From the IMG/VR virus record IMGVR_UViG_3300029250_000344: a stretch of DNA of 64,000 nucleotides; one strand, written 5' to 3'. Positions 1 through 57,700 of the stretch are shown piece after piece. The position numbers and the translations under genes are program-made. The DNA is from a virus. The notes beneath the pieces were generated by a model that worked only from the letters and a program-made list of their open reading frames with translations, was not told the origin of the DNA and searched no databases. Every line of letters begins with the position of its first letter. The stretch's first letter is position 1.

Positions 1-1341
1 CTATAAATTGAAATCTATGTTTATTTTATCGTGGGTTATGGTTATCTGTTTAATAGCCTCGTGCAACACTTCGCGCTGTTCTTCGGGAGCCATAGTATCC
101 CAACGGTCACGAATGTTACCAACCTTCTCTACAAGCCGACGTCTTTTTGTCTCCTCCTTTTCTCTATCTTCTTCGTTGACGATTTTGTCTGCTATACGAA
201 CCAGTTGTTGCTTAGATTCTTCAATGGCTTCTATTAAATAATCGTCACCTCCATCACCATACAATCCATAAAGCCTCCTAATTTTTTGCTCTAAGGTTTT
301 CTTCTGTTGTACAAGTTCATCGAGAACGTTGGTCTTAATGTCGTAAGCCTCGGCTTTATTAAACCGACTGGTGTTCTGGAAAAATATAGTCAGCACGGCG
401 TTCTCTATGTCTTGGACGTTGTGGGACTCATTGTCGCAGTTCGGGTCTTTAACCAAATACGCTTTACTTTTTTGACGCGAATAGCAGTATATATGTCCGC
501 CTTGATAACGCATCTTTGCACCGCACACCCCACACACCAACAAGCCTGTCAATAGATAGACATTGTTCCGTGGGGTAGGAGCTGCCGACCGCTTCTTCAT
601 ACAAGCCATGGCACGTTCATAGGTCTCGAGGGATATTATTGGTTCGTGTTTACCCTGATACTCCACTCCGTTATACACAATCACGCCAGTGTTGGTTTTG
701 CGGGCTAAAATCTGCTCGGCCAGCCTGTCGTATTTCATGCCCAGTATGCGCTGTATCTCGTATGTTGAGCAACCCCCTATGTACAAATCATAGATTTTGC
801 GCACAGTCTCAGCGTCTTTATTTGGCACCAGCGTCTTAAGCTTGGGATCATAATCGTACCCAAACGGTGTCCTGCCGCCTCCAGGCCAATATCCTTCACG
901 TACACGACCTAACATACCTGCCTTTGTGCGCTCTTTGATATTCTCACGCTCAAGTTGTGCAAACACAGATAAGATGCCTATCATGGCGCGACCAAATGGG
1001 GTCGCAGTATCAAAGCTTTCACTAATAGACACAAAATCTACATTGTGTGGCAGGAATACCTCCTCAATAAGATAGAGCGTGTCCTTTTGGCTGCGGCTTA
1101 AACGGTCAAGTTTGAACACAACTACCCGCTCAACTTCCCCGCACTTACAATCTTCTATAAGGCGCGTCATTGCAGGACGATTGAGATTGCTGCCGGTATA
1201 TCCACCATCTACATAATGTTCAAAAGATTTATATCCTTTCAGCTTACAGTATGCTTCTAACCGCTCGCCTTGAATGTCGATGCTGTAGCCTTCTTCGGCT
1301 TGTGCATCGGTAGATACTCGTGCGTATAGCGCAGTAACCAT
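1..1341 (-). CDS. large serine recombinase / integrase, C-terminus truncated by window edge
   Basis: N-terminal resolvase-type catalytic domain (YARVSTDAQ..., Ser/Arg motifs), recombinase domain and Cys-rich zinc-ribbon region. The ORF runs off position 1. Confidence 0.8.
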   Translation of the reverse strand: MVTALYARVSTDAQAEEGYSIDIQGERLEAYCKLKGYKSFEHYVDGGYTGSNLNRPAMTRLIEDCKCGEVERVVVFKLDRLSRSQKDTLYLIEEVFLPHNVDFVSISESFDTATPFGRAMIGILSVFAQLERENIKERTKAGMLGRVREGYWPGGGRTPFGYDYDPKLKTLVPNKDAETVRKIYDLYIGGCSTYEIQRILGMKYDRLAEQILARKTNTGVIVYNGVEYQGKHEPIISLETYERAMACMKKRSAAPTPRNNVYLLTGLLVCGVCGAKMRYQGGHIYCYSRQKSKAYLVKDPNCDNESHNVQDIENAVLTIFFQNTSRFNKAEAYDIKTNVLDELVQQKKTLEQKIRRLYGLYGDGGDDYLIEAIEESKQQLVRIADKIVNEEDREKEETKRRRLVEKVGNIRDRWDTMAPEEQREVLHEAIKQITITHDKINIDFNL

Positions 1342-2717: not shown

Positions 2718-3668
2718 TTACTCGCCGAATTTTATTATGGGGAGCGTGCCATCGCCACCTACATACTGCGGTAGTTTGCCATCCCAATGATTAGCGTAGT
2801 AATACCTTACCAAAGCGTCAGTCAGGGACTCGGCCAGCTTGCGGTTCATTTCAGCCTCCTTTTCGCCAGCATACTTAGCAGCATCGGCTTCTATCTTGGC
2901 AACTTCGGCGGCGGCTTCAGCGTTAATACGGGATACTTCAGCAGCGGCCTGTGCTTCTATCACTTGTCGCTGTGATGCGGCTTCAGTCTCCATAGTCTTC
3001 TGCGCCTGTTCGGTTTGTGCTTTAAGCTTATTCTGTTCGGCTACTTGTTTGGCTTCAACAGCATCCGTAAAAGCATCCGTAAAATCAACGTCCTCTATGG
3101 ATATTGCTACAATATTTATGCCATACTCAGACACGTCCTCAGACAGTGCTATGCGTATCTGTTCACTTATTTCGCTACGATTGGACATGAGGGACTCTGC
3201 CGTATACTGGGCAAATACAATCTTGACATGCTCAAGGATGCGAGGATACAGGATGGCATTGTAGTAGTCTTCTCCAACAGTTTTGTATAGCACCTGCGCC
3301 GTATTCTGGTCGATGCAATAGTTAATAGACACTTTCAGGTCTACCTGCTGGATGTCTGAACTAAATGCTTCAGTTTCTATGAGTGTTTTCTGTGTACGGT
3401 TATCTATTTTAACAACATTTTGCCATGGAGCTTTAGCGTGCATACCTGCTCCAATATTGCCGTCTTCAACTTTGCCAAATGTGGTCAGAATGCCTGTATA
3501 GCCGGTCGGCACAGATGTAATGGTGCTAAAAGCGAGTCCTGCTACCAGAGGTACAGCCGCCAGAAACTGAAACTTATTCAGAAATTTCTTGTCGTGCTCT
3601 ACATTGCTTATGCCCGTAAGCAGAAATACGCCTATCGCCAGAACGATGCCTAAAACGAATATAATCAT
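2718..3668 (-). CDS. SPFH/band-7 (prohibitin/HflC-like) membrane protein
   Basis: N-terminal TM helix, SPFH-like core and an Ala/Glu-rich coiled-coil tail. Confidence 0.6.
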   Translation of the reverse strand: MIIFVLGIVLAIGVFLLTGISNVEHDKKFLNKFQFLAAVPLVAGLAFSTITSVPTGYTGILTTFGKVEDGNIGAGMHAKAPWQNVVKIDNRTQKTLIETEAFSSDIQQVDLKVSINYCIDQNTAQVLYKTVGEDYYNAILYPRILEHVKIVFAQYTAESLMSNRSEISEQIRIALSEDVSEYGINIVAISIEDVDFTDAFTDAVEAKQVAEQNKLKAQTEQAQKTMETEAASQRQVIEAQAAAEVSRINAEAAAEVAKIEADAAKYAGEKEAEMNRKLAESLTDALVRYYYANHWDGKLPQYVGGDGTLPIIKFGE

Positions 3669-3680
3669 ATAACTACCCCC

Positions 3681-4115
3681 TTAATTTTCGCCTGTACTAC
3701 CGAATCCACCGCGATTAGCGTTGCCTAAATCATCTACGGATTCAAACGTTATATTGCCGAACTCATGCCGCATAGTTTTGTTTATGCGGAACTGGCAAAT
3801 GCGTGTGCCATCTGGGATAAACGTGTCACGCAGAGCATACACGGGGAATCTCCACACGTCATCATTGCCGCGATAGCTGCTGTCAATCACTCCGTAATGG
3901 TTGGTCTGTATTACGCCCCATTTAGCAAAGGTTGAGCTGCGAGGCACGACATTGGCCTCGTACCCATCAGGCAATGCCATGGCAAAGCCGAGAGGTATGA
4001 GAGCAGACTCACCAGACTTAAGTCGAGTGTCGCCACAGGCATAACAGTCAATCCACTCTCCTTCTGCAATCATCTTTAGCTCAGGAGAGCCACAATATTT
4101 AATCTTGATGTTCAT
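3681..4115 (-). CDS. dut: dUTP diphosphatase
   Basis: GVIDSSYRGND motif and overall dUTPase-like layout in 144 aa. Confidence 0.75.
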   Translation of the reverse strand: MNIKIKYCGSPELKMIAEGEWIDCYACGDTRLKSGESALIPLGFAMALPDGYEANVVPRSSTFAKWGVIQTNHYGVIDSSYRGNDDVWRFPVYALRDTFIPDGTRICQFRINKTMRHEFGNITFESVDDLGNANRGGFGSTGEN

Positions 4116-4668
4116 TCAGACTCCTTATCTCATCTAAAGTTCTTGGTGTGTAGTCCATCCACGGCATCATAGCCCCAACGTTATACATATGGCATGGTAT
4201 CCCGTATAGCTCTTGCATCAAGTAGCGGTTGTGCTCCATCATGTTGTACTCGAAGGAGCTATGAACATGACCATACAAGTGATACCAACCGTAGTAATGG
4301 TTTTTGAAGCACGGGATGGGGTAGTGGCAAAGCACTACCTTTCTCCCCGCGTCTTCGACTTCTAAGTATTCAGTCACCTTAACGAATTTTTTGAGAAACC
4401 GCCCGTCGCCACAACGGTCGTGGTTCCCTTTGATTAAGAAGATATTGCCATTTAATTGCTCGAGGACGGCGATAGCTTCTTGCATATTGCACCAGAACAT
4501 ATCTCCCAGCATATATACTATGTCGCTTGCGCCCACAGCTGAGTTCCAACGCTCAATAAGTGTCGCGTTCATTGCTTCAACCGTTTTGAATGGGCGATTA
4601 TCAAACGCTAATATGTTTTGATGCCCGTAGTGCCAGTCGGAGATGTATAGCTTTCTGTTATCAGGCAT
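4099..4668 (-). CDS. calcineurin-like metallophosphoesterase
   Basis: DWHYGH, GDMF, GNHD motifs. Confidence 0.7.
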   Translation of the reverse strand: MPDNRKLYISDWHYGHQNILAFDNRPFKTVEAMNATLIERWNSAVGASDIVYMLGDMFWCNMQEAIAVLEQLNGNIFLIKGNHDRCGDGRFLKKFVKVTEYLEVEDAGRKVVLCHYPIPCFKNHYYGWYHLYGHVHSSFEYNMMEHNRYLMQELYGIPCHMYNVGAMMPWMDYTPRTLDEIRSLNEHQD

Positions 4669-4677
4669 ACTGTACCC

Positions 4678-6912
4678 TTAGCTACATTTGCTCCAGCCAC
4701 ACTGCTTGCAAACAATGCATCCACCTTCATGCACAACTTCTTTGGCTCCGCAACTTGGGCACGCACCACCCTCAGATGTAGCAACAACAGGGGTTTCCTG
4801 CACCGCATCTTCTTCGTTAGCGCTCTGTTTCAGTTCGTCAAGAATCTGCTGTAACATATACGCTATTGCGCTGGGGCAAGAGCGTCCCTTGCTAACCTCT
4901 ATGCCTTTGCCGCGTGCATACTGATAGCTTGGGCAACTGCCAGCTTTCTGTAGCTGTTCAATTATATATTCTATTGGCACTCCTCCGCGCAATGCGGCAG
5001 ACATGAGACGGCTATTAGCTTGCGTTGACACTACACAACCACCAACGCCATCCGTGTTTGTGAAGAAGTCGTATATCTTACCTTCATCCTCGTCTATACC
5101 GACAAATAGATAAAGTTTGCCACACCCAGTCTTTAACTTATATTTACGATAGGTTAAACCTTCGGGTACATCCTCTATCATGCCACGTTGCAGCTCTTCA
5201 CAAACACGTGGGTCATCGCCATGGTGCGCCTCATTACTGTCAACCAGTATACCTTCACGCTCACACCCAGCACGATAGATGGTTAAACCTTTCAGTCCTG
5301 CCTTCCATGCTTCCATATAGATATTCATCACATCATCTATAGTGGTTTCGTATGGCAAGTTGATAGTGGAGCTAATAGATGCGTCTATATGGCTCTGCCA
5401 AATCGACTGCATAGCTATGCGGTCTATATAGTCAATATCCTTGGCGGTGACGAAATAAGATGGTAATTCAGCCTCATCTTTGAGATTGTGCATTTCCATA
5501 TACTTCTGGACTATAGGAGTATACACCTTATACGTTACTTCCTTGTTATGCAAGCTTTCTGTACGGCGCGTATATGAATTGGCGAAGATAGGTTCTATGC
5601 CGCCACTAATACCAAGCATTGTGCTAAGAGTCCCAGTTGGTGCAATAGTCAGAAGCTGTGAGTTCTTCATACTAATAGGTGTGCGCTTACTATAACGACA
5701 ATTATACTTAAAGAACCCTGTATCCTTATAATTATCAGGGGATAATACGTCAATCTCCTTTGTAGCAGTCATGGAAGCATCTATTGCTGTGTCGGCAAGA
5801 TGAATTCCTATCTCATCACACAGTTCTATTGCAGCGCTTGAGCCGTATTCGACACCCATCATAATTAGCATGTCTGCTAACCCCATTATGCCAAGTCCTA
5901 TCTGACGCCACTTGCGTACGCTATTTCTTTGTTCTTTGAGAGGGTGCAGTGGCATACCTTCATCCAGCACGTCATTCAAGGCATTTACAGCCCTTTCCAC
6001 CGTATTGATGAATGACTGATAATCGAATGAAGCAAAGGGTGTAAATGGTTTTTCGACGAAAGCCGCAAGATTAATGCTGCCAAGCAAACACGAGCCCCCC
6101 TCCGGCAACGGCTCTTCAGCGCATGGATTTACGCCAGCAAACTCAAATTCAGGTGTGTTCGCAAGTAGATTCCACGTCTTTATTCTATCCCAAAACAATA
6201 TACCCGGCTCGGCGGTACGCCAGTTCATTTCAGCTATCTTACGAAATACATCACGAGCATTGACCGTCTTGCTAATGGTTTCGCCTGTCTCAGGACGTGT
6301 ATATGACAGTGTGTAAGGCAAATTGAGTTCTACGGCTACCATAAAGTCATCGGTGATTCGTACAGATATATTTGCCTTAGTGACACGAGATAAATCTGAT
6401 TTGACTTCGATAAATTCTTCGAGGTCGGGGTGGTCACAAGGCATTGAAATCATCAAAGCCCCGCGCCGGCCACATTGCCCTATCAGCCCTGTTACCATGG
6501 AATACAAATCCATAAACGATACAGCACCAGATGTTTCTTTAGCAGTGTTATGAATCTTAGCTCCGCGTGGGGCAAGTTTGCCGAGGTCGATGCCGCACCC
6601 TCCACCATAGCTGAATGTCCGTGCTAACTTGGAAGCACATTCAAAAATAGATTCTATTGAATCTTCGGGCGGCGCAATAACGTAACAGTTAGAATATGTA
6701 ACCTTCTCGCCGTTCTTGTTGAGTCCTCTGTTAGCAAGGATTCTACCGCCAAATAGGAATTTTTTCTCCTTGATGAGAGTTTTAACCGACTCGTCTCCCC
6801 CGCTAACGCGGTCAAGCCATTCGTCAAATGATTCGTTACCGTTCTGGTATTTTTTATGCCATATGTCAATACCAATCTGATTGTCTGCGCCAAGCCATTC
6901 TTCTACTTTCAT
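4678..6912 (-). CDS. nrdJ: ribonucleotide reductase large subunit, probably class II (B12-dependent)
   Basis: NPCAEEPL...GSCLLGSINL active-site region. No ATP cone. C-terminal CxxC...CxxC zinc ribbon. No beta-subunit gene nearby. The ATG at 6912 overlaps the stop of the upstream kinase gene (ATGA); the track ORF extends to 6957. Confidence 0.75.
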   Translation of the reverse strand: MKVEEWLGADNQIGIDIWHKKYQNGNESFDEWLDRVSGGDESVKTLIKEKKFLFGGRILANRGLNKNGEKVTYSNCYVIAPPEDSIESIFECASKLARTFSYGGGCGIDLGKLAPRGAKIHNTAKETSGAVSFMDLYSMVTGLIGQCGRRGALMISMPCDHPDLEEFIEVKSDLSRVTKANISVRITDDFMVAVELNLPYTLSYTRPETGETISKTVNARDVFRKIAEMNWRTAEPGILFWDRIKTWNLLANTPEFEFAGVNPCAEEPLPEGGSCLLGSINLAAFVEKPFTPFASFDYQSFINTVERAVNALNDVLDEGMPLHPLKEQRNSVRKWRQIGLGIMGLADMLIMMGVEYGSSAAIELCDEIGIHLADTAIDASMTATKEIDVLSPDNYKDTGFFKYNCRYSKRTPISMKNSQLLTIAPTGTLSTMLGISGGIEPIFANSYTRRTESLHNKEVTYKVYTPIVQKYMEMHNLKDEAELPSYFVTAKDIDYIDRIAMQSIWQSHIDASISSTINLPYETTIDDVMNIYMEAWKAGLKGLTIYRAGCEREGILVDSNEAHHGDDPRVCEELQRGMIEDVPEGLTYRKYKLKTGCGKLYLFVGIDEDEGKIYDFFTNTDGVGGCVVSTQANSRLMSAALRGGVPIEYIIEQLQKAGSCPSYQYARGKGIEVSKGRSCPSAIAYMLQQILDELKQSANEEDAVQETPVVATSEGGACPSCGAKEVVHEGGCIVCKQCGWSKCS

Positions 6913-50207: not shown

Positions 50208-50535
50208 AAGGGGGTATTTTCAACCGTTTCAGCCCATATTCCGGGCGTTTTTCGGTGTAGTACATCCACCCACACCTCACCCGCCAATTCTCGCCATCTC
50301 CGTTCATAAAATTTACGCATCCCAATATCCATCCCAGCACCATTCCCACCCCACAACAAAAATCCCCTAATCATCTACGTTTTTTACCTATAATCTATGG
50401 TTATATCGAATGGTATTACCGAGGATACCGAACTACACTATACGCACAGCTTATACCCCGAAGAACCTTTTTTGGTTATAAGGGCAAAAAAAAGAAAAAG
50501 CGCGAGCGAGTCACCGGTGGTGCGAGCGAGCATAT

Positions 50536-50565
50536 TGACAGATAAGTGGTGCTTATGGTATACTC
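50536..50565 (+). promoter_or_regulatory. strong sigma70 promoter for the rightward operon
   Basis: TTGACA, an 18-nt spacer, then TGgTATACT. Confidence 0.55.
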
Positions 50566-50667
50566 ATTTTCCCTTATATATCTTCTTTAAGGAAATGCTT
50601 CAAAAAAGCCCCTAATTTAGGGGTGTTTCAGAAAAAAAATGAGGTAAAATCTAATAAAGGGGGGTTT

Positions 50668-51894
50668 ATGACCTTGAAAATCCATGTTTGTGATGCTGTT
50701 ATGGGCAGTGGGAAAACGCAAGCTGCCATAACAATGATGAACCGCGAAACTGATAGGCGATTCTTATTCGTCACCCAGTTTCTCGATGAATGTAGGCGTA
50801 TTGAAGAGGCTTGCCCTAAGCGACGATTTAAGCAGCCCAAGAATGTCGGCAAAGGTAAGTTGACATCGTTGAACGACCTATTGCGAGGCCAATACAACAT
50901 AGCGAGTACACACGCCTTATTTTATAAGTACAATTCTGAGACCTTAGACCTTATACGCTCTGGCCATTACACCTTAATATTGGATGAAGTCATTGATGTA
51001 CTGGAGTTTATTGATGTGGCCTCCAGTGATATAGACATCTTGTTTGAGGCAGGAATTGTAGATGTTGAGCCTGATACCAGACGTGTTGTATGGATAAAGG
51101 ATAATTACAAGGGCTGTTTTGATGGATTGCGGAATAAGGTGGAGTCTGGTTGTGTTACATATGAGAACAATAGACTGGTGGTATGGCAGTTGCCGTTAGA
51201 GGTGTTTGAGGCTTTTGATGAGGTGATTGTACTGACGTATATGTTCTCGGCACAGTACCAGTCTTATTACTATAAGATGCATAATGTTGATGTGGACTAT
51301 ATAGGCGTGCGACATACCGATGGGCTTGAATATGAGTTTGTGCCGGGGTTGATGCAGGAGAAGATAACTCTGCCTACTATCAATTTATATGCGAACAAGA
51401 AAATGAACGCTATTGGTGAAGCCAAAAATGCTTTGTCTGTGTCGTGGTATAATGGTCAGCAAAGTACAGGGGTGGAAGATCTTAGACGTAATCTGGCTAA
51501 CTTCTTTACCAATATAAGCCCCAGCAATAGCAAGTTGCGGTTGTGGTCTACCTATAATGATAATAGGAAGGGGTTGCAAGGCAATGGCTATGCCAGAAGG
51601 TTTCTCGCGTATAATACACGTGCTACTAATGCCTATAGGGAATGCTCTCATTTAGCATACGCCGTAAACATATTTGCTAATGTGAACACCCAGATATACT
51701 TTGCCGAGCGGGGTTATACCATAGATAATGATGCTCTCGCCACCTCTGAAATGGTGCAGTGGTTGTGGCGGAGCAGACTGCGGGATGGCAAGGAAATATG
51801 GTTGTATCTGCCGTCCAGCCGTATGCGGAGATTGTTATACAAGTGGGTAGAGGAGGTAACGGGTAATGTTGACTGCATTAAGGAATGGAAATAA
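50668..51894 (+). CDS. P-loop NTPase (Walker A at residues 11-16, DEAD-like LILDEV)
   Basis: AVMGSGKTQ and LILDEV. The start is taken at the Met preceded by RBS AAAGGGGGG (track start 50623). Confidence 0.5.
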   Translation: MTLKIHVCDAVMGSGKTQAAITMMNRETDRRFLFVTQFLDECRRIEEACPKRRFKQPKNVGKGKLTSLNDLLRGQYNIASTHALFYKYNSETLDLIRSGHYTLILDEVIDVLEFIDVASSDIDILFEAGIVDVEPDTRRVVWIKDNYKGCFDGLRNKVESGCVTYENNRLVVWQLPLEVFEAFDEVIVLTYMFSAQYQSYYYKMHNVDVDYIGVRHTDGLEYEFVPGLMQEKITLPTINLYANKKMNAIGEAKNALSVSWYNGQQSTGVEDLRRNLANFFTNISPSNSKLRLWSTYNDNRKGLQGNGYARRFLAYNTRATNAYRECSHLAYAVNIFANVNTQIYFAERGYTIDNDALATSEMVQWLWRSRLRDGKEIWLYLPSSRMRRLLYKWVEEVTGNVDCIKEWK

Positions 51895-52634
51895 AAGGAG
51901 GGGTTCTATTGTATAAGGCAAAAGTAAAAGACGGCACATTCTTTCTGTATATGTTGCAAAGTATGCCTAAGATGCGTCCTAAGACGGCGGCGCGTTTGAT
52001 GTACTTGGCCACATACCTATCATATGATGGTGCGCTGCGTAGTACACAGCGAACGAAGATGACTAAAAAGCGTATGGCAGAGCTGCTGGGGTTGAAGCGT
52101 AAGACCTTTGACCGGTTCTTCACTGAAGTGACAGACGCGGGGATGCTAATAAAGACAGATGACGGTTACACCATGAATTGTAATTACTTTGTACGAGGCA
52201 GGGTTGAGCGCACCGATAATACTCGCTTTACCAGAGTCTTCATCAAGTCTATGCGTGCCTTATACGAAGCCACTTCCCCTCGTCTTCATCAGTATCTTGG
52301 TTATATCTTCTTATTAATGCCCTATGTGAATGTGCAATGGAATATTGTGTGCCATAATCCTCTGGAGGATCATCTTGAGGCAATAGAACCCATGACACTT
52401 GGCGAGTTTTGTGACGCCATTGGATATGAGCGAGACAATGCGCAACGCCTACTGGACAACTATCGCAAGATAACGTTCAACTGGAATGGCAGGCAACAAT
52501 ACTTTTGCACATTCTTCTATGAGGAGGATATACGGGATATGCGCATTGTGTGCAACCCTAACCTATTCTATATAGGGGGGCACATAGAAAAGGTTGAGTC
52601 TTACGGCGAGTTTTGCGTAAAAGGTGATGGCTAA
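51885..52634 (+). CDS. winged-helix protein, possibly a replication initiator/organizer
   Basis: MAELLGLKRKTFDRFFTEVTDAGML HTH-like segment. Confidence 0.4.
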   Translation: MEIKGGVLLYKAKVKDGTFFLYMLQSMPKMRPKTAARLMYLATYLSYDGALRSTQRTKMTKKRMAELLGLKRKTFDRFFTEVTDAGMLIKTDDGYTMNCNYFVRGRVERTDNTRFTRVFIKSMRALYEATSPRLHQYLGYIFLLMPYVNVQWNIVCHNPLEDHLEAIEPMTLGEFCDAIGYERDNAQRLLDNYRKITFNWNGRQQYFCTFFYEEDIRDMRIVCNPNLFYIGGHIEKVESYGEFCVKGDG

Positions 52635-52759
52635 TTTCACAATCTGTTCACATTTACCTTATTGACTGATATAAGCGCAAGTTATATACTACAAAGGACA
52701 ACTTAGAGCGGCACCCGCCGCCATCAAAAAAATAATTCCAAATGGAGGAAAATTGAATA

Positions 52760-52942
52760 TTGGAAAACAACAAGGCGCAGGTGTTCAGCAGTGAACAGTT
52801 CGGTAATGTATGCACTATTATGCGTGACGGTGAGCCATGGTTCGTGGCGGCAGATATATGTAAGGCGATAGAGATTGCAAATAATCGTGATGCGCTTACC
52901 GGAAAGTGGCGTAAAGCCCTTTGCTTTAGCTATGGGATATAA
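52760..52942 (+). pseudogene. Bro-N domain N-terminal fragment, cut by the TnpB element
   Basis: EQFGNVCTIMRDGEPWFVAADICKAIEI matches the Bro-N starts of the paralogs at 55344 and 56927. The last codons are encoded by the IS end hairpin. Confidence 0.5.
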
Positions 52943-53069
52943 GCCACAATGTTTTCCGCAAAATATTGCAATAGTTTTGCGCTTGTAGTGTAACGTTGCT
53001 ATGAAATATAAAGCAACCAAAATGCAGTACATAGAGAATCAGAAAAACGTCTGAAAGCGAGGTGAGATA

Positions 53070-54182
53070 GTGGAATATTCCTACAAGTTTCGTTTGTATC
53101 CTACCGCTGTGCAGAGAGCGCAAATATCCCGGAATTTTGGTTGCTTCCGGTATGTGTTTAACCACTTTCTCGCCCAAAGGCAGGAGCAGTATAAAGAAAC
53201 AGGAACATCTCCTACGCGGTTCCAGCAAGACAAAATCCTCACGATACTCAAACAAGAATTGCCGTGGTTGAAGGAAGCGGATTCCACGTCATTGCAGGCA
53301 ACCCTTCAAGACTTGGACATGGCCTATCAGAACTTCTTCCGTCGTGTAAAGCAGGGTGAGAAGCCCGGCTATCCCCGATTCAAGAGCAAGAGAGCCCATC
53401 GGCAGAGCTACAAGAGCAAGTGCGTAGGGACAAATATCAAAGTATTAGAAGGTGCTGTACAGCTCCCCAAACTGGGAAAGGTAAAATGCCGGATAAGCAA
53501 GCCCGTAGAGGGGCGTATTCTATCTGCAACCGTCAGCCAGACTCCAAGCGGAAAATATTTTGTAGCCCTGTGCTGTACAGATATTGATATGGAGCCGCTG
53601 CCATCTACAGGGGCGGTGGTCGGCATCGACATGGGGCTGAAAGCATTTGCAATCACCTCCGACGGCGTTTCATACCAAAACCACAAGTATCTTGCGAAGT
53701 CCGAAAAGAAGCTTGCGAAACTTCAACGGCAACTCTCCCGAAAATCAAAGGGGAGTAACCGCTGGGAGAAGGCAAGATTGCAGGTAGCGCGGCTTCACGA
53801 ACACATTACTAACCAGCGGCATGATATGCTCCACAAACTATCCACCGACCTTGTACGGAACTATGATTTGATTGCGATTGAGGATCTGGCTTCGTCTAAC
53901 ATGGTGAAAACCCACAAGCTTGCGAAAGCAATCTCTGATGCAGGTTGGGGCGAGTTCCGGCGGCAGTTGCAGTACAAGGCAGCATGGTACGGAAAGGAGG
54001 TGGTTGCGATAGACCGCTTTTACCCCTCCAGCCAGCTTTGCTCCGCTTGCGGCGCTCAGTGGTCGGGCACGAAAGACCTGTCCGTGCGCGAATGGACTTG
54101 CCCACAATGCGGCGCACAGCATGATAGGGACATAAACGCTGCGAAGAACATTTTGAACGAGGGATTACGCCTGTTGGCGTAA
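53070..54182 (+). CDS. tnpB: TnpB RNA-guided nuclease
   Basis: RuvC D (GIDMG), E (AIEDL), zinc finger CSACG...CPQCG, C-terminal [10 protein letters not shown]. Confidence 0.85.
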
Positions 54183-54305
54183 CCAATACACATGGTAGGG
54201 CGGGACACGCCCGAACCTATACGCTCGGGGACACCGTGTAAGACCTTGCAAACGCAGGCGGTGGTGGTTGAACCGAGAATCCCCCGGCTTTAGCCGTGGG
54301 GTGTC
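54100..54305 (+). ncRNA. candidate TnpB omegaRNA / right-end region
   Basis: The 3' end of tnpB plus a 120-nt tail ending in the type-A hairpin. By family knowledge the guide would lie beyond 54305. Confidence 0.35.
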
Positions 54306-54344
54306 AAAAATATTAGCGGTGTTGATTGTTATTAAAAGGACGGC

Positions 54345-55058
54345 ATGGCCTATTTGAAGCTTGAGGCCGTAGCCAGAGGGTTGGGTTTTACAGACAACAG
54401 TAAGGGTGTAGAGTATGTGCGTTGGAACACCGTTAAACAGTATTTGGCCGATATTGGCTTTTCGCAGGAAGTTGCGAAAACAGACTACATCCCCGAGAAC
54501 GTATTCTATCGCCTTGCTATGAAGGCCAAGAATGAGACTGCGGAAAGGTTTCAGGCATTAGTGGCTGACGAAATAATACCCACCATCCGTAAGACTGGCG
54601 GCTATGTGCAGGCTGGCCGTGAAGAAGAATTCATCGAGAGGTACTTCCCCGCTTTCTCGGACGAGACCAAGCTTACTATGGTTAAGGATTTGAGGACGCA
54701 GGTGCTGGCATTGAAGGCCGACAACGCCAAACAGCAGGCACAACTGGCCGAGCAGCAACCCAAGGTCGAGTTTGCCGACCATGTGGCCGATTCCAAGACA
54801 CTGCTCACTGTGTCCGCCTTTGCCAAGATAGTGCAGAACGAGGATATTAAGCTGGGGCGCAATAAGCTGATGGCGTGGCTAAGAGATCGTGGTTATCTGC
54901 GTGCTAATAACGAGCCGTATCAGCAGTATATTAAACAGGGGCTGTTTCAGGTGCGTGAGGTGTATGTGAATGGTATGGTTCACCCTGTCACCTTCATCAC
55001 TGGTAAGGGCCAGCTCCATTTAGTTGGGAAGCTACGTGCCGAGTTTTGTGCGGCGTAA
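54345..55058 (+). CDS. antirepressor C-terminal region (Bro paralog remainder)
   Basis: Aligns with residues about 40-249 of the 55344 paralog (IPENVFYRLA..., EFADHVADSK..., GYLRANNEPYQQY). Confidence 0.55.
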   Translation: MAYLKLEAVARGLGFTDNSKGVEYVRWNTVKQYLADIGFSQEVAKTDYIPENVFYRLAMKAKNETAERFQALVADEIIPTIRKTGGYVQAGREEEFIERYFPAFSDETKLTMVKDLRTQVLALKADNAKQQAQLAEQQPKVEFADHVADSKTLLTVSAFAKIVQNEDIKLGRNKLMAWLRDRGYLRANNEPYQQYIKQGLFQVREVYVNGMVHPVTFITGKGQLHLVGKLRAEFCAA

Positions 55059-55076
55059 CAGGAGGATGCAGTATAT

Positions 55077-55280
55077 ATGGAAAACGAACTTTTGAGAATT
55101 GACTACACTAATGTAGACAGGCCAACTGTGCTTGGTCGGGACTTGCACGAGGCTCTGGAGGTACAAACGGCATATAAAGATTGGTTCCCACGCATGTGTG
55201 AATATGGATTTGAAGAAGGTAAGGACTATTGCTCAAAAATGAGCAATAGGGTTGATGGGCTTGGTTTTACTCAGATTTGA
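55077..55280 (+). CDS. hypothetical protein
   Basis: ORF. Confidence 0.35.
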   Translation: MENELLRIDYTNVDRPTVLGRDLHEALEVQTAYKDWFPRMCEYGFEEGKDYCSKMSNRVDGLGFTQI

Positions 55281-55343
55281 GTAAAATAAGATGCTTGTCG
55301 CAATACGTGTGTTGTTGAAATAGTCTAATAGGGGATAGTTTAT

Positions 55344-56093
55344 ATGAACGGAATACAGGTCTATAAGAACGAACAGTTTGGTGAGGTAAGAATGGTGGTT
55401 GAGGGAGATAAGGTACTATTCTGTGCTAAAGATGTAGCCGCTGCTCTTGGGTACAAAGATACAGTTAATGCAATCAAGCAACACTGTCGGTGGGTGGTGA
55501 AACGCCATCTACCTCATCCACAGTCTAAAGATAAGACTGTGGAGATGTCTTTTCTGCCGGAAGGAGATGTGTATCGGCTTGTTGCTCACAGCAAACTCCC
55601 TACATCTGAGCAATTTGAGAAGTGGGTGTTTGATGAAGTCATACCTACCATTCATAGACATGGCGTGTATATGACCCCCGCTAAAATAGAGGAGGTACTG
55701 CTTAATCCCGACACCATTATCAGTCTTGCTACCCAGCTTAAAGCGGAGCGAGAAAAGAGCCAAGCGCTACTTGCCGAAAACAGCGCCATGAAACCCAAGG
55801 CCGAGTTCGCTGACCGCGTGGCTAATACGGATGGCCTGCTGTCTATGTCCAACTTCGCTAAAGTAATACAAGACGAACATATAAATATGGGGCGTAACAA
55901 GCTATTTGAGTGGCTACGTAGTCAGGGCTATTTGCGGGGTAATAACGAACCATACCAGCAGTATGTCAATCAGGGGTTGTTTAGGGTGCGCGAAACAGTA
56001 CATAACGGCGGCCTGCGCACTCAGACCTATGTAACCGGTAAGGGTCAGCTCTATTTGGTAGAAAAGCTTAAGACTGAGTTCTGTGTGGCGTAG
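55344..56093 (+). CDS. Bro-N domain antirepressor
   Basis: NEQFGEVRMVVEGDKVLFCAKDVAAALGY Bro-N, then an antirepressor-type C-terminal domain. Confidence 0.65.
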   Translation: MNGIQVYKNEQFGEVRMVVEGDKVLFCAKDVAAALGYKDTVNAIKQHCRWVVKRHLPHPQSKDKTVEMSFLPEGDVYRLVAHSKLPTSEQFEKWVFDEVIPTIHRHGVYMTPAKIEEVLLNPDTIISLATQLKAEREKSQALLAENSAMKPKAEFADRVANTDGLLSMSNFAKVIQDEHINMGRNKLFEWLRSQGYLRGNNEPYQQYVNQGLFRVRETVHNGGLRTQTYVTGKGQLYLVEKLKTEFCVA

Positions 56094-56166
56094 GGGGGGT
56101 CGTGAAACGCGACGGGGTCTTTCCCACTTGTGGAGACGGCAATATCTTATAAAGGAGGTGAGCAGG

Positions 56167-56926: not shown

Positions 56927-57700
56927 ATGGATCAGCAAGTGAAAGTATTCAACAATGAGCAATTTGGTAGTGTGCGTATTATCGAGGAGGATGGTAGGGT
57001 TCTATTTTGTGGCGTTGATGTAGCGAAGGCGCTGGGTTATACCAATCCCAGAAAAGCAGTACGTGACCATACAAAGGGAGGAACGTTTCGTTCCACCCCC
57101 ACGGCAGGTGGAATGCAAGATATGTCATTCATCCCGGAAGGCGACGTGTACCGGCTTATCACCCACAGCAAGCTGCCCTCCGCAGAGCGCTTTGAGCATT
57201 GGGTGTTCGATGAGGTGTTGCCCACACTGCGGCAGACAGGCAGTTATGTGCTCCAGCGCCCAGATAGCTACATGATAGACGATCCGATAGAGCGAGCCAA
57301 ACGATGGATTGAGGAGGCACAAGAGAAACTTGCTCTACAGGCCAAAGTGGAGGCCGATGCGCCCAAGGTTCTATTTGCTGATGCGGTTGCCACATCAAAG
57401 GACAGTTGTCTTGTTGGCCAGCTTGCCAAGGTGCTGCGCCAGAATGGTTACAATATCGGCCAGAACCGTCTGTTTGACTATCTGCGCAACGAGGGATATC
57501 TGTGCAAGAGCGGCGAGAACCGTAACATGCCGACACAGCGCAGCATAGATGCAGGCTGGTTTGAGGTAAAAGAAGGCACGCTGTATAACTTTGATGGTAC
57601 TGTGCGAATAACGCGCACGCCCAAAGTAACAGACAAGGGTCAAATATACTTCGTCAACAAATTCTTAAAGGAGGCCAAAGGTGCAATATCATGTAGGTGA
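56927..57700 (+). CDS. Bro-N domain antirepressor
   Basis: NEQFGSVRIIEEDGRVLFCGVDVAKALGY. Confidence 0.65.
   Translation: MDQQVKVFNNEQFGSVRIIEEDGRVLFCGVDVAKALGYTNPRKAVRDHTKGGTFRSTPTAGGMQDMSFIPEGDVYRLITHSKLPSAERFEHWVFDEVLPTLRQTGSYVLQRPDSYMIDDPIERAKRWIEEAQEKLALQAKVEADAPKVLFADAVATSKDSCLVGQLAKVLRQNGYNIGQNRLFDYLRNEGYLCKSGENRNMPTQRSIDAGWFEVKEGTLYNFDGTVRITRTPKVTDKGQIYFVNKFLKEAKGAISCR

Follow-up and report, generated by a model that had tools for sequence, protein, structure and literature searches.

In the 64,000-nucleotide stretch of viral DNA analysed here (IMG/VR virus record IMGVR_UViG_3300029250_000344; referred to as the window), we identified a 1,408-bp IS608-like element of the IS200/IS605 family of insertion sequences (ISs), which lies between the remnants of two genes encoding Bro-N proteins, referred to as gene A and gene B. 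The element very probably joins gene A, truncated at codon 47, to gene B, truncated at codon 8, the intervening DNA having been lost, and does not split a single gene. The features that delimit the two junctions are the following.

52760-52899, plus strand: 5' remnant of Bro-N gene A, comprising 47 genuine codons (MENNKAQ...NNRDALT) and matching positions 2-33 of the Pfam Bro-N profile.

52896-52899, plus strand: TTAC, the left target and cleavage tetranucleotide and presumed transposon-associated motif (TAM), which is part of gene A (codons L46-T47).

52900-54307, plus strand: non-autonomous IS200/IS605-family (IS608-like) element of 1,408 bp, consisting of the left end, a tnpA remnant, tnpB, the ωRNA and the right end.

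54308-55058, plus strand: 3' part of the Bro-N/KilAC gene B, 97% identical to positions 3145-3895 of the IS-free relative L001.

The origin of the locus was traced by comparison with two IS-free relatives. The first, L001 (IMG/VR contig 3300045988_109750), is a close relative, the flanks of which are 95-97% identical to those of the window. Positions 41-2388 of L001 correspond to positions 50531-52877 of the window at 95% identity, and positions 3145-3982 correspond to 54308-55145 at 97%. In place of window positions 52878-54307, L001 features 756 bp that include the remainder of gene A, a stop codon and spacer, and the start of gene B. Gene A of L001 encodes a 265-residue protein with two Bro-N domains, and its first 39 codons are homologous to the window fragment. 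Gene B encodes a 257-residue protein carrying Bro-N (profile positions 3-96) and ANT domains, and begins MENKLQITNISGVDCYEKDG-MAYLKLEAVARGLGF....

The second relative, L342 (QXGG01035017.1), was the only locus retrieved in a metagenome scan performed with a 20-mer specific to the window allele of gene A, and it is unfused. The allele is identical over 22 nt and continues uninterrupted in L342 (...gcaaataatcgtgatgcgcTTAC|tcgtagtgatgatgat, encoding ...NNRDALT|RSDDDKK; gcgcTTAC|tcgtagtgatg). Past the TTAC, 270 bp, including the stop and spacer, precede gene B (atggagaacaaattgcagatCAC|aaatattagtgg). Protein P0002 independently gives ...NNRDAVARLDDDEK as the natural continuation of the Bro-N fragment, and a search of the 47-residue fragment against a set of 5.8 billion proteins returned only three short proteins, with the continuation RDAV-ARLDDDEK. 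A 17-mer of the gene A allele had three chance matches in IMG/VR, all in unrelated genes. No close relative was found among the GenBank phages in INPHARED, in which only AntA/KilAC matches of about 100 bp were observed and the region from 45 to 64 kb had no megablast hit.

To judge from these alignments, the N-terminal fragment and the open reading frame (ORF) at 54345-55058 are pieces of two different neighbouring genes, and the locus once featured four Bro-N-type genes. By the same comparison, the interval between the gene A TTAC and the gene B TTAC has been lost, which amounts to 270 bp relative to L342 and 756 bp relative to L001. A preliminary description of this DNA had reported that a TnpB element disrupts a Bro-N coding sequence, which holds, but had taken that sequence for one of three paralogs, split in two by the IS. 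This latter view has to be abandoned. The fragment and the ORF belong to separate genes in L001 and L342, so that the N-terminal fragment does not derive from the gene of 54345-55058, and the search of related phages for an uninterrupted single gene yielded genes A and B instead. The suspicion that the event was not a clean cut-and-paste insertion proved justified, as the interval between the two TTACs is absent relative to both relatives. The overlap between the two fragments, which is accounted for by the two-gene ancestry and the lost interval, is also real, but had been underestimated at about 10 residues. In a joint alignment, the N-terminal fragment spans columns 1-48 and the C-terminal ORF starts from column 25, corresponding to an overlap of about 20-24 positions.

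The alternative that a single Bro-N/KilAC paralog, made up of 52760-52899 and 54308-55058, was split by cut-and-paste insertion is extremely unlikely. It is true that joining the two pieces preserves the reading frame at TTAC|AAAT (NNRDALT-NISGVDCYEKDG across GCGCTTAC|AAATATTAGC), and that a single 260-residue gene of the related phage L002 (IMGVR_UViG_3300045988_123242) has an N-terminus 56% like the fragment and a C-terminus 69% like the C-terminal ORF. However, the product of such a gene would hold the first third of the Bro-N domain twice (profile positions 2-33, then 3/13-96), and the joined reading frame meets a TAA after 8 codons. Moreover, two genes are present in both L001 and L342, separated by a stop, a spacer and a start codon. 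Past RDALT, the sequence naturally continues as RSDDDKK or RLDDDEK and not as NISGVD, and the predicted empty site is absent from IMG/VR.

The borders of the element, at 52900 and 54307, were set by the divergence from related copies, and also by the homology break relative to the IS-free loci L001 and L342. The related copies include L152, found in a metagenome-assembled genome of an uncultured Clostridia (81% TnpB identity), L081 (78%), L286/L239 (82.5% DNA identity to the window element across all 1,408 bp) and about 40 others. The preliminary description had rightly recognised the element, the extent of which is now revised from 52905-54305 to 52900-54307. There is no target-site duplication: the right flank, AAATATT, does not repeat the left one, and TTAC is present once at the IS-free sites in L001 and L342. 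The left end starts directly 3' of TTAC both in the window (gcgcTTAC|cggaaagtggcgtaaagccc) and in L152 (tattTTAC|cgaaatgtgccgtaaagccc), and the right end of the window element (ccgtggggtgTCAA|aaatatt) closes in TCAA at 54304-54307. In a set of about 40 copies, TTAC or TTAT precedes the left end, and TCAA, mostly as GTCAA, closes the right end.

The right junction (TCAA|AAATATT...) corresponds to the position directly 3' of the gene B TTAC of L001, where 25 nt are identical to the window. TTAC occurs at 0.4% of positions, with 253 copies on this strand of the window, and its rarity argues that the gene B breakpoint is a junction made by the transposase and not the end of a random deletion. The left junction (TTAC|left end) is equally canonical, but falls within gene A. 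Since both borders are canonical TnpA junctions, the loss of the interval was most likely mediated by the IS.

The order of events might have been different. A TTAC microhomology deletion unrelated to the IS might have fused gene A at codon 47 to gene B at codon 8, and the IS might have been inserted later by chance. IS-independent deletions are frequent in the array, as L001 lacks the sequences corresponding to window positions 55146-55352 and 55530-56153, and the two TTACs have the same codon phase, the fusion (GATGCGCTTAC+AAATATTAGCGG) being in frame. Nevertheless, hitting exactly the fusion TTAC among the 253 on the strand is improbable a priori. The fusion allele is absent from IMG/VR, and the metagenome scan for the gene A allele gave only the unfused L342. 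We therefore consider a prior fusion very unlikely.

Given that the element joins two truncated genes, the deletion may have followed different routes. In a two-copy route, the element, mobilised in trans by TnpA, would have been inserted at both TTACs in the same orientation, and homologous recombination between the direct copies would have removed the interval, leaving a single IS. IS608 inserts into the lagging-strand template, and a bias in its orientation is documented (PMC5027513). As lagging-strand insertion imposes one local orientation, two nearby copies would be direct repeats. We give this route a little less than an even chance. The outcome resembles the classical two-copy IS deletion, which leaves one IS with the left target of the first site on one side and the right flank of the second on the other, the sequence in between being lost; here, the deletion is deduced only from the junctions. 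We found no description of a classical two-copy deletion for IS200/IS605 elements in phages.

In a one-step route, TnpA would cut the right-end TCAA and a downstream TTAC and would link the new flank to the right end, and the interval would be circularised. The same chemistry as in normal excision would be used. To our knowledge, such an adjacent deletion is undescribed for IS200/IS605 elements in nature, and we regard it as unlikely. No paper pairing IS608 with adjacent deletions was found among those searched. It also seems improbable that the element was inserted once, in gene B, and that a TTAC microhomology deletion arose next to it.

Recombination might also have brought in the IS with its immediate flanks, in one piece, from another phage in which the structure was already present, for instance when a TnpB cut in gene B was repaired; the event would then have occurred outside the present phage lineage. 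A mosaic joint lies beside the element: the 22 nt at 52878-52899 match the L342 allele exactly and differ from L001, and the sequence further left is 95% L001-like and about 80% L342-like. In addition, L001 still has the perfect TTAC and 25-nt target. Import, however, would merely shift the origin of the deletion to the donor, where it is left unexplained. Moreover, 22 nt are too few to demonstrate a conversion tract, and phage mosaicism yields such joints without any nuclease. Overall, import of a block is conceivable but doubtful.

Several observations weigh against a deletion brought about by the element. No intermediate was found, as we detected neither a two-copy state nor a gene A or B that is intact but for an IS copy. 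The exact TnpB and both fragments were seen only in the present arrangement, and IMG/VR yielded no intermediates. Searches of IMG/VR for the predicted empty-site fusion and for the junction of the gene B left flank with the left end returned nothing, or chance matches only. Relatives show IS-independent deletions in the region, and an unrelated deletion is therefore possible. The size of the lost interval is uncertain, because the ancestral gene A allele is known for 22 nt only and gene A of L342 looks degenerate.

Two lesions at the ends of the window copy point in the same direction. Between the right hairpin and TCAA, the window (GGGGTGTCAA) has 2 nt fewer than all 27 relatives (GGGGAGTGTCAA), and one C:G pair is missing from the foot of the left hairpin (CCCT...GGG in the window, CCCC...GGGG in relatives). 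These lesions may impair processing by TnpA, rendering the window copy immobile, or may shift the junction between the ωRNA scaffold and the guide.

The joining of gene A to gene B by the element is not confined to the window. In the assembly collection, 58 indexed blocks contain the exact N-terminal fragment and 42 contain the C-terminal ORF. The contigs that were read, typically 60-240 kb in length, originate from numerous independent metagenomes of the human gut; ERZ28657833, ERZ915398 and ERZ28657007 are examples of those in which this phage occurs. The fragment-IS-ORF arrangement was present in all of them (24/24 contigs in the fragment search and 22/22 in the ORF search). In a DNA-level comparison of 18 loci, identities were 99.6-100%, indels were absent and tnpB had only four variable sites. 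The deletion-IS allele is fixed in the lineage contigs examined. An analysis of single-nucleotide polymorphisms in 13 further copies of the locus revealed only 4 variable tnpB sites, too few for a selection test. Codon 26 of tnpB (53145-53147) encodes Phe in the window and in its two identical contigs; residue 26 is Cys (FGCCRY) in 13 other contigs of the same lineage, as well as in L152 and L081.

Both flanking genes are affected. Gene A is destroyed. The 60-residue ORF at 52760-52942, correctly described earlier as an N-terminal Bro-N fragment, runs into the IS and now stops 13 codons inside the left end. Codons 48-60 (GKWRKALCFSYGI*) are encoded by the left end, including the hairpin, as had also been noticed in the preliminary description. 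Gene B has lost the promoter-proximal region, the ribosome-binding site and the first 8 codons, including the start codon. In IS-free loci, gene B begins MENKLQITNISGVDCYEKDG-MAYLKLE..., with a start codon of its own and 20 N-terminal residues in addition to those encoded by 54345-55058. The latter ORF (237 residues; Pfam Bro-N, profile positions 13-96, and ANT/KilAC) corresponds to gene B from the former Met21. At best, therefore, the product of gene B is truncated from Met21 and lacks the first 20 residues of the Bro-N-like domain. A TAA at 54333-54335, located 12 nt upstream of the ATG now used, replaces the GAA present in both IS-free relatives (a G-to-T change) and is fixed in all the IS-bearing contigs examined. 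This codon would stop translation reading from the element into gene B.

Two complete Bro-N + ANT paralogs are located directly downstream, at 55344-56093 and 56927-57700. Gene A, gene B and both downstream paralogs carry Bro-N, and KilAC/ANT is found in all of them except gene A. Because two intact Bro-N/KilAC paralogs are present downstream, a phenotype of the disruption is doubtful. A 67-residue AntA fragment, encoded at 55077-55280, covers only positions 1-40 of the 68 positions of the profile.

In L001, which lacks the two stretches mentioned above, the Bro/Ant array rearranges without any IS, and as a result of this loss positions 3914-4184 encode an AntA N-terminal fragment in frame with the first ~58 residues of the 55344 paralog (88-residue ORF). 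In comparison with the window and L001, gene A of L342 (positions 649-1010, minus strand) carries a small deletion and an in-frame stop at its 5' end, and in the body of the gene half a Bro-N domain is joined directly to the conserved C-terminal tail (...AMCCEQGVDIDNILPYVAG). In L002, a different TnpB unit, of the IS607 type, is found at nearly the same spot (positions 3996-5764). This unit encodes a 161-residue serine recombinase (Pfam Resolvase) and a 389-residue TnpB, so that the locus acquired a TnpB element independently. The unit is flanked by a homolog of the 249-residue gene and the single hybrid 260-residue Bro-N/KilAC gene, the N-terminus of which is gene A-like and the C-terminus gene B-like. 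No insertion preference for Bro genes was observed, as a Bro gene is found near 4 of 174 related IS loci and none is interrupted by the IS.

The modules of the element are listed below, together with the flank that follows the right end.

52900-52960, plus strand: left end with a subterminal imperfect hairpin (core at 52917-52936), preceded by AAAG at 52913-52916.

53001-53054, plus strand: tnpA remnant of 17 codons (MKYKATKMQYIENQKNV*), corresponding to the first 4 and the last 9 codons of a Y1 transposase.

53070-54182, plus strand: tnpB, encoding a 370-residue member of the ISDra2-type RNA-guided nuclease family (Pfam HTH_OrfB_IS605, OrfB_IS605 and Cas12f1-like_TNB).

54194-54307, plus strand: ωRNA scaffold, supported by covariation, and right end, with the right hairpin at 54281-54301 and the terminal TCAA at 54304-54307.

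54308-54327, plus strand: right flank, the presumed ωRNA guide and target (AAATATTAGCGGTGTTGATT), corresponding to codons 8-14 of the former gene B.

Subterminal imperfect hairpins are found at both ends in place of terminal inverted repeats. The left end, folded as single-stranded DNA (52896-52960), has a free energy of -12.2 kcal/mol (z -2.95), and the right end (54270-54312) likewise folds into a hairpin (z about -2.9). Both hairpins are kept in relatives. The tetranucleotide GAAT, at 54277-54280, is located directly 5' of the right subterminal hairpin (54281-54301). GAAT is also the right guide of IS608, although it was not found in a search of PMC3201880.

The window element does not encode the Y1 HUH transposase TnpA, of which only the 17-codon scar is left. 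L152 features at the same place, between the left end and tnpB, a gene for a full 130-residue Y1 transposase (MKYKSNNN...IKQYIENQKNM; Pfam Y1_Tnp, E 3e-46). Relative to the complete gene, the window copy has an internal deletion of about 344 nt and retains ATG AAA TAT AAA ... CAG TAC ATA GAG AAT CAG AAA AAC GTC TGA. With tnpA reduced to 17 codons, the window copy is unable to move alone and is a derivative rather than an autonomous member of the family. L286/L239 feature the identical tnpA deletion junction in a different genomic context, so that the element belongs to an established non-autonomous lineage that depends on mobilisation in trans.

TnpB was described from the outset as a canonical 370-residue protein with a RuvC D/E/D triad and a zinc finger, and both the Pfam matches and the alignment with ISDra2 TnpB agree with this description. 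Residues D187, E271 and D354 fall on D191, E278 and D361 of ISDra2 TnpB, which form the RuvC triad of that protein, and the triad is thus intact. The zinc finger is also intact, with CxxC pairs at 324-327 and 344-347. The alignment with the ISDra2 protein is full length (PDB 8bf8, E 8e-106; about 1e-105 for 8bf8/8h1j). The element retains an apparently functional tnpB together with its ωRNA.

The ωRNA structure was derived from an alignment of the last 175 nt of 28 members of the subfamily. The consensus includes 26 pairs, 11 of which show compensatory double changes, and 98% of the cells are paired. Covariation as high was obtained in 0/500 column shuffles, and shifting the partners by 1-3 columns makes the signal collapse. 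An Rfam scan of 52000-55500 gave no match at E up to 1, and support for the structure therefore comes from our own alignment. An earlier alignment of all 56 loci with the right-end motif was too heterogeneous, as very different elements carry the 25-nt terminal motif, and was redone with the 28 subfamily members. The terminal hairpin is invariant across the subfamily alignment, which fits a double duty as a TnpA binding site.

The 25-nt right-end motif (GAATCCCCCGGCTTTAGCCGTGGGG) is found, as an exact match, in 105 stretches of IMG/VR viral contigs (loci L235-L339). The elements carrying it are otherwise very divergent, differ in the ωRNA scaffold upstream of the motif and range from 1.2 to 1.75 kb in length. 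For some matches, no left end or tnpB could be recognised nearby, and others measure only 123-386 bp from end to end; these very short copies suggest miniature derivatives.

By analogy with the known mechanism of TnpB, the sequence from 54308 onward would serve as the guide. The presumed guide (AAATATTAGCGGTGTTGATT) is unique within the window. L001 retains a perfect TTAC and a 25-nt match to it (cagaTTAC|aaatattagcggtgttgattgttat), and L342 features TCAC and one mismatch at the corresponding site. TnpB would thus be expected to cut TTAC+AAATATTAGCGGTGTT in IS-free relatives such as L001. If the TnpB-ωRNA pair is active, cutting of IS-free sister phages would favour the spread and retention of the element and, through homologous repair, conversion to the IS allele. 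A joint reading, in which either TnpA made the adjacent deletion in one step or TnpB-ωRNA acts as a homing drive of phage against phage, is quite unlikely in our estimate. Were the homing drive real, competitors would receive a copy of the element together with the linked two-gene deletion during co-infection, the guide still matching TTAC+AAATATTAGCGGTGTT.

IS608 of Helicobacter pylori is known to insert 3' of TTAC, with right cleavage at TCAA, AAAG as the left guide and a logic based on guide tetranucleotides proximal to hairpins (PMC3201880). The window element shares with IS608 the position 3' of TTAC, a right end in TCAA, AAAG located 5' of the left hairpin, hairpins near both ends, and the absence of inverted repeats and target duplication. 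Full-length relatives such as L152 also share the tnpA-tnpB order. In contrast to IS608, the window copy has no tnpA save the 17 codons, and its TnpB is closest, among solved structures, to that of ISDra2. Spacings differ as well. In the window, the left hairpin foot is 17 nt from TTAC, and TCAA ends 6 nt past the right foot, whereas the IS608 cleavage sites are 19 nt and 10 nt from the hairpin feet, although counting conventions may differ.

The likeness to the ISDra2 TnpB-ωRNA complex of Deinococcus radiodurans (PDB 8bf8, 8ex9, 8h1j) extends to the domain order, the triad, the zinc finger, and a structured RNA at the 3' end of tnpB that reaches the right end. The presumed TAM, however, is TTAC in the window element (TTAY in the subfamily) and TTGAT in ISDra2, the ωRNA of the window matches no Rfam model, and the nuclease role is here predicted. 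IS1341-type and other tnpA-less IS605 derivatives similarly feature tnpB alone between IS605-type ends and need TnpA in trans. The window element is comparable also in that the same deletion derivative occurs elsewhere (L286/L239, 82.5% identical), but differs in that its tnpA-tnpB origin is still visible in the 17-codon scar.

The window also encodes a 1,040-residue DNA polymerase, a ParB-like protein, an amidoligase-like protein, an exonuclease and a YonV_C-domain protein, and the host of the element is a large SPbeta-like, polymerase-encoding phage or prophage. The temperate lifestyle of this phage is an assumption of the preliminary description. The window genes match the Bro-N/KilAC (ANT) domains of phage proteins, the antirepressor role of which is here putative. 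The effect on lysogeny control suggested earlier derives solely from the family name "antirepressor", which in this case is only a family label, and nothing firm on lysogeny control can be drawn from the locus.

The element is of a well-known kind, an IS608-like, tnpA-less TnpB/ωRNA element, and the event is an ordinary insertion plus deletion. The locus provides an example of how an IS605-family element in a phage may mimic the simple disruption of one gene while marking a deletion that spans two paralogs. It also provides a natural TnpB-ωRNA pair with an identifiable presumed TAM (TTAC), the target of which is still present in sister phages, and this pair could be used in tests of TnpB-driven homing from phage to phage.

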